Below are positions 53,772-62,294 of a stretch of DNA of 64,000 bases, piece after piece. The notes beneath the pieces are model-generated. The model searched no databases, was not told the DNA's origin, and worked only from the letters and a program-made list of their open reading frames with translations. How positions within the stretch are numbered: position 1 is the stretch's first letter; the number at the start of each line of letters is the position of its first letter. The DNA lies in IMG/VR virus record IMGVR_UViG_3300005611_000014, positions 6,080 through 70,079 of that record, one strand, 5' to 3'. Both the position numbers and the translations under genes were made by a program. This DNA comes from a virus. Lineage: Duplodnaviria; Caudoviricetes.

Positions 53772-54047
53772 ATGTCAATTTCAATTAAAGAAAGAGTTAA
53801 AGCTAATGATTCTGACTTCGCTAAAGCGGAGGCATTTGCGAATGGTGACTTAGTTGCCGTTAATAGCAAAGGTGAAGAAGTTCGTTTGCGCTTAGCAAAG
53901 GGATTAGCTTTAAGATCTGATCAGTCTAGTAATACTAAGGCTTGGTTGGATCATGCAAAGGCTAATCCTGACCATGAGTATACCTTAAAGGTCAAAGTCA
54001 ACTTTAATGTTGATGGTTCTGCGGATTTGGAAGATTTAACCTTCTAA
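53772..54047 (+). CDS. Early hypothetical protein, 91 aa (position where N4 carries gp2-like early genes)
   Basis: RBS TGGAGAAATAT before ATG 53772 (track start TTG 53760 is upstream of the RBS). Acidic end ADLEDLTF. Confidence 0.7.
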   Translation: MSISIKERVKANDSDFAKAEAFANGDLVAVNSKGEEVRLRLAKGLALRSDQSSNTKAWLDHAKANPDHEYTLKVKVNFNVDGSADLEDLTF

Positions 54048-59338: not shown

Positions 59339-59722
59339 ATGGATTACGATTTGATGCTTGCGCTTATTGAAGCCAAGAAAAACAATAAGCCTATTTACTA
59401 TAGAAAAAAGGGTTCAAACAACTGGATACGTTTACCTGTGGAGGAATCTTTTGATTTTATTCATATGGATTACTCAATGGAACCAGTTATTCCTAAACTG
59501 CTGTATGTGAATATCTACTCCGATGGAGAAATATACGCACACACTTCTGAAGAGAATGCTGCAATAAACGCAGACATTACTACAAACGCAGTGTATTCAG
59601 AAGAATATATAGCTTTGCGTACAGTACAGCCGTTAATTGAACACCTTGTTACTGATCCGGTTATGTTACCGTGTCATATAGATGCTGCGCTAAATGTAGT
59701 GCTAGGAGCTATTCGTGGGTAG
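59339..59722 (+). CDS. Hypothetical protein with a common phage N-terminal domain (paralogue of 60383-60703)
   Basis: ATG 59339 behind CAGGAG (track start 59306). ALIEAKKNNKPIYYRKKGSNNW...FDFIHMDYSMEP. Confidence 0.65.
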   Translation: MDYDLMLALIEAKKNNKPIYYRKKGSNNWIRLPVEESFDFIHMDYSMEPVIPKLLYVNIYSDGEIYAHTSEENAAINADITTNAVYSEEYIALRTVQPLIEHLVTDPVMLPCHIDAALNVVLGAIRG

Positions 59723-60386
59723 TATAAATATTCGTGATGCTGTAATGGACTCTCTAGTTTATCTAGAAAATACAAATACATTGGATGAAATAGTAGCAGA
59801 GCAGGTTACTGAACTAATTAAAGAAACTATACGTGAATCCTTGAAATCGTATAATCCAGTAGGTAGTGCGATACAGGATTCTATTAAAGAAGCTATGAAT
59901 AGTAGTGCAGCTAGTTTAGATTTACCTAGCTATAACGTGTATATAGCTCAACTGGTTAATGATTGCTTTACCGACACTTTGCAAAAAGAAGGAAAAGAAC
60001 ACCTTCAACAACTGATTGCTAATACTGTTGGTAATGTACCTGTCAGTTCTACTTTTACTTCCTTACTTGAAGAAATACAAACAAAAATGGAAACTTTTGC
60101 AGGAGGAGAAATAAAAGAAGAAACAAATGAAGATGCGTCAGCAATCTATTTAACTATTCCTGATGAGTACAATGAATCAATTAAAGTTAGTCTTTTTAAC
60201 TTTAGTACAGAGAATAAAAACCATTACCGTATTTGCTATATAAGTACTAATAGAGATGTGATTACAGGTTTTACTGCAAATAGAGTTTCTACCTATCGCT
60301 CAGAATTAGTTAATCGCCTTTACGCTTATTATGCTAAAGGTACGCTCTTTGAGAAAGACCACAACGTACAGGGGAGCCTACCATGA
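59715..60386 (+). CDS. Hypothetical protein
   Basis: 223-aa ORF with GTG start behind AGGAG. VKDIV-like N-terminal helical region (IKETIRESLKSY). Family not recognised. Confidence 0.65.
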   Translation: MGSINIRDAVMDSLVYLENTNTLDEIVAEQVTELIKETIRESLKSYNPVGSAIQDSIKEAMNSSAASLDLPSYNVYIAQLVNDCFTDTLQKEGKEHLQQLIANTVGNVPVSSTFTSLLEEIQTKMETFAGGEIKEETNEDASAIYLTIPDEYNESIKVSLFNFSTENKNHYRICYISTNRDVITGFTANRVSTYRSELVNRLYAYYAKGTLFEKDHNVQGSLP

Positions 60387-60703
60387 ATATGAGTATAGAT
60401 GACATGATCATCGTATTGGAAGCCTATAAATTAGGTAGACCGATACAAAAAAGAGCACCTAGTATTTCTGAATGGACGAACGTGCTTGAAAATTATGAGG
60501 AAGAGTTTGACTTTCAGTACTACGAGTATCGTGTGAAACCTGAACCACGTTACGAGGTTAGGACTATTGCCGATAAACAGTACGTAGACATTCAAGCTTT
60601 GAGGGACGTACTTCCTTTGATAGCAGTAGTAGGTTTACCTTCAGAACATGTTTTTAAACATATTAAGGAGGCAATAGACAGTGCTAACTCTGAAACAGAT
60701 TAA
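60383..60703 (+). CDS. Hypothetical protein (paralogue of 59339-59722)
   Basis: IIVLEAYKLGRPIQKR...EW...FDFQYYEYRVKPEP. GGGGAG RBS. Confidence 0.65.
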   Translation: MNMSIDDMIIVLEAYKLGRPIQKRAPSISEWTNVLENYEEEFDFQYYEYRVKPEPRYEVRTIADKQYVDIQALRDVLPLIAVVGLPSEHVFKHIKEAIDSANSETD

Positions 60704-61025
60704 TGATCACATGACTCGCCCTAAATCTAGGCTGTTGGCTTCAGATGGTTGGGGTGATACATCATTAGATATAAGCCATAGTAATACCAATACATTTTAC
60801 ACAGGCGAAGTTGAATCCTTATTTGAATTAAGGGTAACAACTAGGTTAATAACACCAGCACCTTATGATCATAGAGTCAGTAAGTATGCTGCCGAGGCTA
60901 TCCATAAGCATTTATTTCATGATTTAGAAGAAAGACTCCTTATAGTCAGACATAGAATGAACTTCTGTACTAAAGACGAAGCCATGCAATTATTGGATCA
61001 ATTAATTAATGATATAAAAGGATAA
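60681..61025 (+). CDS. Hypothetical protein
   Basis: 114-aa ORF with GTG start behind AAGGAGG. Confidence 0.6.
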   Translation: MLTLKQINDHMTRPKSRLLASDGWGDTSLDISHSNTNTFYTGEVESLFELRVTTRLITPAPYDHRVSKYAAEAIHKHLFHDLEERLLIVRHRMNFCTKDEAMQLLDQLINDIKG

Positions 61026-61031
61026 ACCGTA

Positions 61032-61232
61032 ATGGCGAATCTTTACTATTACCGATGGAAAGTAGAACTTTATGTAACAGGTTCTGCTCATAAGCGTATT
61101 TATACAGGTTCTGTCCAAGCAGGACGAAAATTCACAAAAGAAGAAGTCTTCGATTTAGTTAAAGAAATGCATCATGGACTACTTGATGCAGCAACTCTAC
61201 TAGAAGTAACCCAAGTAAATAAGGCTTCTTAA
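61032..61232 (+). CDS. Hypothetical protein
   Basis: AAGGA RBS, 66-aa ORF. Confidence 0.6.
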   Translation: MANLYYYRWKVELYVTGSAHKRIYTGSVQAGRKFTKEEVFDLVKEMHHGLLDAATLLEVTQVNKAS

Positions 61233-61720
61233 ACTAATCTCGCTGGCCTGCGGATAGGTGATGGTGCTGACCTAGCTTTGCCAAAAGCTGAAGAGTAGAC
61301 CCGTCAAAATTACCCTGACGTTAAGACTGATGAAAACGTATTCGTACCTTTCATCGAGGCTAGGTGTGGGAACCTAGCTACCTATTGAGCCATACAGCCC
61401 GAATCCCAATTTGGTTAAGACTGTATGGCAATAGTCCGTTGGAAAATAAAAAGTCAGTAAAGTTGCGTTCTAGTAGTGCGGTAATACTTTGCTGATGCCG
61501 TAAGGCATATACTAGATAAGGGCGCTCTTACATATCTGAGCCAAAGACGGCAATCAGGGTGCAAAGCCCTGTCCCTTTCTAGAGGTAGTTAGATAAGAGG
61601 AGACTACTGTGGCTACTACAGTCATAGAGATTGTTGCTCATTTGAGTGATTCTTAGTTTCCCGCCTCATTTTATGTAGGTCTCTGGTGAGAGTATTAAAT
61701 TCAATTCCAGTCGCCTACAC
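61233..61720 (+). ncRNA. Candidate large structured non-coding RNA (unassigned family)
   Basis: About 490 nt with no ORF in the track apart from the doubtful 5' extension of the next gene. At least eight hairpins or helices, including a GNRA and a TTCG loop. Strand is assumed from the flanking genes. Confidence 0.5.
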
Positions 61721-61763
61721 CCTATTTTTCTTCCTTTTTTCCTTTCTTATACGGAGGTACACA

Positions 61764-62294
61764 ATGCGTACAACTTCTCACTTATTACAACCTTCATCTA
61801 CTACAACAGACGCGCTTATTGCAGAAGCACAGCTTATTGCAGTAAATGATAGATTTTTCTATCAATGTTTGGGTGTAGAGGAAGCTAGAGAACAAAACGC
61901 CCTTCTTTTAGAAGAAGAAGTAAATATAGCGGTAAGAAAATGCGCAGACTTGCGTAAATACTCACCTATTTTAAAAAGAAACATAGATTTATTCACTCAA
62001 CAATTAAATCTACATTATGAATTATTAACTTATATCCCTAAAGAGGAAAAACCAATGCCTACTATTACACTTACTAACCACGAAGAAACTTCACCTTTAT
62101 CTACTGTACTTATTTGTGCAGGAAAACGCCTAGACGCTATGTCTGAAGGGGATATAGTGAATACTATTAACGATTATCAAAACCAAATAGACAAACTGAA
62201 AACAGTTAAAGTTAAATCAACAAAAATACAAAAATCTATCACTACTTTGCAAGCTCAACTTACAGAATTAGTTGCTGCTTACGATGCAATGTAG
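61764..62294 (+). CDS. Hypothetical protein, possibly two fused genes or two products
   Basis: ATG 61764 behind ACGGAGG (track GTG 61686 lies in non-coding structure). A second in-frame RBS/ATG sits at 62055. Confidence 0.65.
   Translation: MRTTSHLLQPSSTTTDALIAEAQLIAVNDRFFYQCLGVEEAREQNALLLEEEVNIAVRKCADLRKYSPILKRNIDLFTQQLNLHYELLTYIPKEEKPMPTITLTNHEETSPLSTVLICAGKRLDAMSEGDIVNTINDYQNQIDKLKTVKVKSTKIQKSITTLQAQLTELVAAYDAM

Follow-up and report, generated by a model that had tools for sequence, protein, structure and literature searches.

In a 64,000-nt stretch of DNA from an uncultured N4-like phage (hereafter the window, bases 6080-70079 of a 70,079-nt IMG/VR virus record), we find a conserved RNA gene at positions 61383-61572 on the + strand, inside a gene-free gap of 531 nt (61233-61763). 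That this segment is a member of a real family of conserved structured RNAs is, in our judgement, close to certain. With considerably more reserve, we on balance favour the overall statement that it represents a phage-family RNA gene of approximately 190 nt, the product of which would be a stable, trans-acting RNA with a target in tRNA biology or translation. The original prediction for this region had instead proposed a single, densely paired RNA of roughly 490 nt (61233-61720); its underlying observation is confirmed, while the interpretation holds in part only, as the object is 190 nt and not 490 nt long, but far more widespread.

The principal evidence is provided by a covariance model of 140 positions, R1, constructed from 26 other phages with the window excluded. 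Applied to the entire 64 kb, it returned a single match, 61383-61572 (+), which spans model positions 1-140 of 140 at 94.4 bits (E = 1.1e-20), as expected of a full-length family member. At the level of primary sequence, blastn of the gap gave no matches at E ≤ 1e-5, and at E ≤ 10 against 50,697 phage records only window positions 61383-61439 matched, in unannotated DNA of the Sinorhizobium phages phiM12, M7, M19 and N3 (beside tRNA-His) and of three Acinetobacter phages. Already the three first sequences displayed a stem with compensatory changes, together with an identical loop and 3' junction. A strict search pattern, CCCGNATCCC-N3-6-TGGTNAAGA-N5-14-AATAGTC, recovered 30 loci in IMG/VR and a looser loop pattern 85, with R1 confirming 53 of 53 new loci; at least 85 IMG/VR contigs carry the RNA, and each locus or genome has one copy.

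The family is built from a fixed order of elements. It opens with WUGAG, followed by hairpin A, in which a 9-bp stem of free sequence carries the invariant loop CCCGWAUCCC-N4-6-UGGUYAAGA, and by the invariant junction CAAUAGUC. Next comes a long-range helix of 5 bp, G(U)CNNN / NNNGC, in which one U is bulged. It encloses a variable region, its 3' strand NNNGC being preceded by the A-rich CAAAC, and after two or three further bases the RNA closes with a terminal hairpin whose 7-nt loop reads UGGAAAG. The variable region usually consists of a GNRA hairpin and one further hairpin, and 'long' members insert 50-100 nt. Altogether the core measures 121-242 nt, with five helices that covary and about 27 unpaired bases that are invariant; the minimal member, L043:1777-1897 (121 nt, from a marine metagenome; likewise L044), lacks both the GNRA hairpin and insertions.

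All of these elements can be placed in the window. Hairpin A extends over 61389-61429 (+), with the stem GCCATACAG/CTGTATGGC and a 23-nt near-invariant loop, CCCGAATCCC-AATT-TGGTTAAGA; across the family its stem covaries at 9/9 pairs with 98% of cells paired, while the loop bases are invariant in 29/29 sequences, and the family loop and junction are matched base for base at 61398-61420 and 61429-61436. The invariant AATAGTC of the junction and the 5' strand of the long-range helix (G61434, the bulged T61435 and CCGT at 61436-61439) occupy 61430-61439 (+), and the 3' strand, ACGGC preceded by the A-rich AAAG, is located at 61543-61551 (+); 98% of cells of this helix are paired across the family. 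In the window, GUCCGU (61434-61439) thereby joins ACGGC (61547-61551), with a U-A pair in place of the usual G-C, and the helix exists as CCGG/CCGG, CUGG/CCAG, CCAG/CUGG, CGGG/CCCG and CUG/CAG in other members and as CCGU/ACGG here. Within the variable region, a hairpin of TCAGTAAAGT/ACTTTGCTGA (61454-61495, +) is predicted in both the minimum free energy and the centroid folds; it occupies the insertion site of the long members L015, L018, L028, L031, L034 and L037. It is followed by the GNRA-tetraloop hairpin ATGCC-GTAA-GGCAT (61495-61508, +; family helix 3), which covaries at 4/4 pairs with 92-94% of cells paired, and finally by the 3'-terminal hairpin CAGGG-TGCAAAG-CCCTG (61555-61571, +; family helix 5), which covaries as well and has TGCAAAG in the loop as compared to TGGAAAG in the family consensus. 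Beyond this hairpin conservation ends in all members.

Covariation lends the pairing scheme its weight. In a MAFFT alignment (A1) the hand-drawn structure pairs in 89.7% of cells as compared to 63.0% after shuffling, dropping to 31-40% once partners are displaced by 1-3 columns, and the covariation score reaches 0.68 versus 0.19 for shuffled controls that preserve column make-up and not phylogeny, with 25 of the 28 pairs changing on both sides. The alignment fitted to the model itself (A3, 36 sequences) attains 94.9% paired cells and a score of 0.82 versus 0.21. The comparison of related phage loci advocated by the original prediction hence yielded five covarying helices, and the base pairings it listed for this segment are all present, including the long helix at 61382-61434, TCAGTAAAGT/ACTTTGCTGA at 61454-61495, TGCC-GTAA-GGCA at 61497-61508 and CAGGG/CCCTG at 61555-61571.

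Folding energies are congruent with the comparative data. The + strand of the gap folds at -166.1 kcal/mol (z = -3.72), a value that none of 100 shuffles equalled, and the structure of the gap thus exceeds chance. The - strand reaches z = -1.13, and we assign the RNA to the + strand on the basis of this difference (z of -3.7 versus -1.1) and of the tRNA neighbours of the family, which are uniformly on the same strand as the RNA; the hairpin at 61454-61495 moreover includes a U-G pair, the counterpart of which on the opposite strand would be A-C. When 150-nt windows were scanned across the genome with a correction for G+C, the gap supplied the 2nd and the 4th most structured of the 852 on the + strand. 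Taken piecewise, the conserved segment (61383-61572) has z = -2.67, the 5' flank -1.91 and the 3' flank -1.92. The gap is the longest non-coding stretch of the 70-kb genome and also the one with highest G+C (0.45 versus 0.37 genome-wide and about 0.33 locally), all six of its frames are broken, and the promoter and terminator scan made no call inside it on the + strand. The view that it is non-coding, expressed from the + strand and distinct from tRNA, tmRNA, RNase P RNA and introns was likewise borne out, Rfam 15 giving nothing real for the window at E ≤ 10 and ARAGORN detecting no tRNA or tmRNA in the whole 70-kb genome at default, ps90 or ps80 settings (the calls at ps70 are spurious).

The RNA is carried by strikingly different phages. 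Cultured carriers are phiM12, M7, M19 and N3, Aeromonas phage TSW001, the Acinetobacter phages TCUP2199, EAb13 and Mystique, and Eggerthella phage LE2-3, and uncultured N4-like carriers are the source phage of the window, L028, L037 and L023; R1 scores amount to 99.6 bits for the phiM12 group, 90 for the Acinetobacter phages, 85 for TSW001 and 58 for LE2-3. Carrier contigs range from 11 kb to 448 kb and belong to N4-like, T4-like, Ackermannviridae-like, siphovirus and jumbo phages, whereas N4, LUZ7 and Alteromonas phage PT15-A5 have zero copies. A divergent form scoring about 37-48 bits with R1 was recovered in about 25 contigs of 155-160 kb and in the Ackermannviridae Salmonella phage CRW-SP2 (L047:1491-1672) and Serratia phage phiMAM1 (L046:1499-1660). 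This form retains hairpin A, but has UGGAAAG at the junction in place of CAAUAGUC and UCUAGCA in the terminal loop; junction and terminal-loop elements thus look swapped, hinting at the two meeting in three dimensions. The strict pattern matched three times in 185,579 species genomes of bacteria and archaea, in every case on a contig of a metagenome-assembled genome (MAG); on one of these contigs a terminase gene lies at a distance of 2 kb, and another carries PHROG phage genes. The family consequently appears to be phage-specific and nearly absent from bacterial genomes.

As to the genomic surroundings, the RNA has a tRNA or tmRNA gene for a neighbour, at a distance of at most 1.5 kb and on the same strand every time, in 16 of 39 loci. 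In L023, L039 and L040 the RNA starts 0-5 nt past a tRNA, in TSW001 it is found inside the tRNA array and in Ackermannviridae just upstream of the array. The clearest case is L039:1190-1900 (Flavobacteriaceae MAG contig CAYMIJ010000019.1), where tRNA-Ala, the family RNA and a complete tmRNA follow head to tail on one strand, on a contig that is phage-type, with a terminase large subunit 2 kb downstream; this array looks like a phage 'stable RNA operon'. The source phage has no such neighbours, as is true of the other 23 of the 39 loci, and this location is therefore not a defining feature of the family. No conserved partner protein gene emerged, any protein family being shared by at most 4 of 40 loci, and downstream of the RNA some members have a start codon and others a tRNA or a terminator-like U-run. 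In Acinetobacter phage TCUP2199 (L007:190-1809), the family RNA is a single unit within 1.6 kb of gene-free sequence, which also contains T-arm-like pieces (GGTTCGATTCCC) that are not recognised as tRNAs by ARAGORN.

How might such an RNA act? We propose a discrete, stable RNA acting in trans, with a 5' end that would stem from tRNA-type processing wherever the RNA sits in a tRNA/tmRNA operon and a 3' end that would be protected by the terminal hairpin. The invariant loops and junctions would then form a compact tertiary core engaging a universally conserved host component. Since the RNA has no conserved protein gene as a neighbour and the hosts of its carriers fall into at least three phyla (Proteobacteria, Actinobacteria and, as a probable third, Bacteroidota), a compact tertiary fold acting on a universal host component appears the most likely arrangement. 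As to the nature of the target, tRNA or the translation and tRNA-processing machinery (the tRNA itself, a processing or repair enzyme, or the ribosome) is a tentative candidate, and the effect may be that translation of the phage is favoured or that a tRNA-directed host defence is blunted. In the source phage, the RNA is flanked by 150 nt and 190 nt of lineage-specific and weakly structured sequence, which would be a leader and a trailer, the latter doubling as the 5' untranslated region (UTR) of the next gene.

Several of our own observations weigh against this proposal. The covariation was measured against controls that ignore phylogeny, and the higher of the two scores comes from an alignment fitted to the model; a scan for further covarying pairs, tertiary or pseudoknotted, beyond the five helices found none. 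As invariant bases give no covariation, the suggested tertiary fold draws on conservation, and the case for a discrete, stable RNA is built on covariation, strand and context. The tRNA or translation target, in turn, relies on gene neighbourhood in less than half of the loci, the source phage and about half of the other carriers being without a nearby tRNA gene.

Still, phage non-coding RNAs are poorly charted, and conservation such as that of this core, about 130 nt with some 27 invariant unpaired bases, usually signifies a ribozyme, a ligand-binding RNA or the partner of a universal machine. The habit of residing in tRNA/tmRNA operons points to translation and tRNA biology, an active field of phage-host conflict with tRNA-cleaving defences and phage tRNA arrays, and the cultured carriers (phiM12, TSW001, TCUP2199, EAb13, Mystique and Serratia phage phiMAM1) make the role directly testable. 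A bolder version, that the family is a new functional class of RNA acting directly on tRNA as a small ribozyme or a tRNA-docking RNA, strikes us as rather unlikely. Here the AAUAGUC junction, the bulged-U helix with its A-rich strands and two loops containing UGG would grip the elbow or CCA end of tRNA; if true, phages of many lineages would carry a tRNA-acting RNA whose use during infection would be the processing, protection or re-routing of tRNAs.

Related to the proposed tRNA or translation target is the idea of a decoy or inhibitor, directed against a host defence that attacks tRNA or translation (e.g. anticodon nucleases) and travelling with the phage tRNA genes. The family is indeed confined to phages, is located in tRNA arrays and has no partner protein gene, and it contains the loop pieces CGAAUCCC and UGGUUAAGAC, which we take to resemble parts of the T- and D-loops of tRNA. 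Defence nucleases are however diverse and lineage-specific, whereas the unpaired bases of the RNA are invariant across phages of Proteobacteria, Actinobacteria and probably Bacteroidota, which favours a universal target over such nucleases, and no defence or anti-defence gene is linked to the RNA. A decoy, like the switch that the original prediction also named, is a conjecture, and we regard it as unlikely.

It would also be conceivable that the RNA is self-cleaving or otherwise catalytic and cuts tRNA-operon transcripts, by analogy with the theta ribozymes. These are similar to the ribozyme of hepatitis delta virus (HDV), lie directly beside phage tRNA genes and are tied to tRNA maturation, showing that phages put ribozymes next to tRNAs (PMC10879173). 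The 27 or so invariant unpaired bases in a 130-nt core are typical of ribozymes, the direct succession of tRNA and RNA in several members would suit a cleavage role, and the bulged-U long-range helix between A-rich strands recalls helix P4 of RNase P. On the other hand, no ribozyme family of Rfam matches 14 members at E ≤ 10, including the HDV-type models. Theta ribozymes are nested double pseudoknots of about 50-70 nt, while the family has 120-240 nt and five helices that are nested, with no crossing helix supported, and about half of the members, among them the source phage, have no tRNA in the vicinity. A catalytic role of this kind thus seems improbable.

The flanks of the conserved segment are where the original prediction and our data diverge the most. 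According to it, the gap would encode one RNA on the scale of GOLLD or ROOL, which in an extended form would cover 490-530 nt, with the 190-nt core and the flanks as peripheral domains. This view can draw on the G+C enrichment and fold z-score (-3.72) of the gap as a whole, on the 5' flank having the highest G+C (0.46), and on a possible 7-bp GATAGGT/ACCTATT pairing with the beginning of the core, which would close off the 5' hairpins. The 5' flank (61233-61382, +) comprises four or five short hairpins, and the pairings listed for it were recovered, AGCTTT/AAAGCT at 61274-61289, CGTCA/TGACG at 61302-61320, GATGAAA/TTTCATC at 61329-61355 and GCTAGGT/ACCTAGC at 61359-61378; its fold (z = -1.91) is however matched by 9 of 200 shuffles. 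Analogously, the 3' flank (61573-61763, +; z = -1.92, 12 of 200 shuffles as good) folds into a branched hairpin at 61599-61660 (+) and a hairpin at 61675-61718 (+), the latter corresponding to the announced GTAGG..CCTAC.

Comparison with other phages argues against including either flank. Among about 90 other phage loci, conservation is limited to the 190 nt of 61383-61572, and both flanks were without relatives in blastn (E ≤ 10, 50,697 phage records) and without an R1 match with filters off; in the 5' flank ARAGORN found no tRNA even at lowered thresholds. In the closest carrier, an N4-like contig (L028/L042) with a DNA polymerase 36% and another protein 51% identical to those of the source phage, a coding gene stops just before WUGAG, unrelated sequence follows the terminal hairpin and the flank hairpins are absent. 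In most other members as well, coding sequence or a tRNA abuts the core, and the 121-nt L043 shows how small a member can be. The Rfam models of GOLLD and ROOL gave no match, and the conserved unit, of 190 nt in the window and 121-242 nt across the family, falls well short of their approximately 600-800 nt. GOLLD (RF01998) and ROOL (RF03087) resemble the family in being phage-associated structured non-coding RNAs that are sometimes near tRNAs, yet they are about 3 to 5 times larger and common in bacterial genomes too, where the family is almost absent. One large RNA is in our view quite improbable; rather, the flanks appear to be unique to the source phage and weakly structured, and for annotation R1 separates the RNA gene at 61383-61572 from them.

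The same reasoning applies to the alternative pairings that the original prediction had raised (the two copies of ACCTAGC, and ATAGGT/ACCTAT), which lie partly in the non-conserved flank and lack comparative support. The duplicated GTTAAGACTG and ACCTAGCT are both present; the repeat of GTTAAGACTG is real as a sequence feature, but again falls partly in the non-conserved flank without comparative support. A second, degenerate copy of the RNA in the 5' flank, as the repeat might suggest, was considered and rejected, R1 with filters off finding none, so the duplicated GTTAAGACTG is not a duplication relic. The 5' flank, with its high G+C, may be a leader or may harbour a small RNA of its own that is restricted to this lineage. 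At the other end, a 30-nt, almost pure pyrimidine tract, CCCTATTTTTCTTCCTTTTTTCCTTTCTT (61719-61748, +), separates the last hairpin from the GGAGG (61753-61757, +) of the next gene. The tract may serve as the tail of a terminator or may enhance translation, and the end of the 3' flank may analogously be a terminator or a 5' UTR, the terminator scan having made no call.

A cis-acting leader, i.e. a riboswitch or attenuator of the downstream gene (in the window the 176-amino-acid open reading frame (ORF) at 61764), is very improbable. It would fit L011, L033, L008 and L043, in which a ribosome-binding site and start codon follow 15-40 nt past the terminal hairpin, and the window, where a same-strand gene is situated downstream, but the downstream genes are unrelated across loci, many members precede a tRNA, tmRNA or terminator instead, and in the window 190 nt of unrelated sequence intervene between the RNA and the start codon.

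It is also highly improbable that the RNA is a reduced descendant or fragment of RNase P RNA (the P3-P4 core) or of tmRNA (the region before the resume codon). The thought is prompted by the stretch AAUAGUCCGG ... AAACCCGGC, which is similar to GAAAGUCCGG ... AGAACCCGGC in the RNase P of bacteria, down to the bulged U, and the Eggerthella and Ackermannviridae forms have GGAAAG at the junction. Shared with P3-P4 (RF00010) are a hairpin, an A-rich junction, AGUCC with a bulged U and a distal CCGGC after A-rich sequence, and both RNAs are linked to tRNA. However, only this P4-like stretch of 7 + 8 nt is similar, the strands of P4 are about 280 nt apart rather than 60-110 nt, P1, P2, P5-P18 and the specificity domain are missing, and the long-range helix of the family covaries freely, unlike P4. 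Model similarity was null in both directions: RF00010, RF00011 and their relatives do not match the window and 13 further members at E ≤ 10, and R1 with filters off scores near 0 on rnpB of Escherichia coli. Regarding tmRNA, AAUAGUC precedes the resume codon in E. coli, and in L039 the RNA lies beside a tmRNA. The frames after AAUAGUC nevertheless have no conserved length, their stops derive from the GUAA tetraloops, a tRNA-like domain is absent, and the tmRNA models of Rfam stayed silent on the 14 members, so that a kinship with the tag template was rejected together with tmRNA identity itself, for which ARAGORN was negative as well.

Further known RNAs were considered and set aside. A tRNA or degenerate tRNA cluster is contradicted by ARAGORN (default, ps90 and ps80) and by RF00005 (null at E ≤ 10), and a group I or II intron by null results at the same threshold and by flanking ORFs that are complete, having stop and start codons of their own. 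The T4 RNAs rnaC (species 1) and rnaD (species 2) are comparable to the family in being structured, about 120-140 nt long and encoded on the same strand within a tRNA operon (NC_000866), and the RNAs of the T4 tRNA cluster have been described as 'RNAs of yet unknown functions' (PMC9697503). Membership in the same family was rejected, as R1 is null in the T4 tRNA region and the sequences are unrelated; moreover, rnaC ends in a tRNA-like T-arm, which the family does not, and the family is spread over many unrelated phage groups, unlike the T4 stable RNAs. None of 14 members matched Rfam 15 at E ≤ 10 and 15 loci were null at gathering thresholds; the family has no counterpart in Rfam 15 and appears to be uncatalogued. 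A catalogue of 10,006 unnamed viral candidates for structured RNAs ('csRNAs'), derived from covariation in intergenic regions of IMG/VR viruses (PMC10690425), may already include the motif under a number, though the paper's text describes no such motif. A literal sequence search of a library of papers returned chance matches only.

The phage itself is an N4-like podovirus, as indicated by a 3,355-amino-acid ORF of virion-RNA-polymerase size and by both RNAPII subunits (phrog_2166 and phrog_2051). With RNAPII at no more than 38% identity to any other sequence, it is very isolated, and the nearest N4-like contig by RNAPII (L003) has neither a comparable gap nor an R1 match. The conserved RNA sits among the middle genes, on the + strand. 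The gap is bounded by the stop of a 66-amino-acid ORF (61232) and by the ATG at 61764, which is preceded by the GGAGG ribosome-binding site and opens the 176-amino-acid ORF. The flanking proteins P0003 and P0004 have no relatives in IMG/VR, cultured phages or 5.8 billion clustered proteins, and the route to related phages via synteny failed because the genes adjoining the gap are orphans. The 223- and 176-amino-acid ORFs that bracket the gap (window 59715-62294) have only self-matches among the same 5.8 billion proteins.

The same phage sequence is carried by ENA contig ERZ27252103, k141_181293, of 85,143 nt, as compared to the 70,079 nt of the IMG/VR record; the extra 15 kb may stem from a concatemer, from a terminal repeat or from a join made in assembly. 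Finally, the top over-structured 150-nt window on the + strand of the 64 kb is 53851-54000 (z = -2.83, G+C-corrected), which is situated in the early-gene region, just past the point where the coding strand changes. It may merit attention, since early promoters of the N4 type are hairpins in the DNA.

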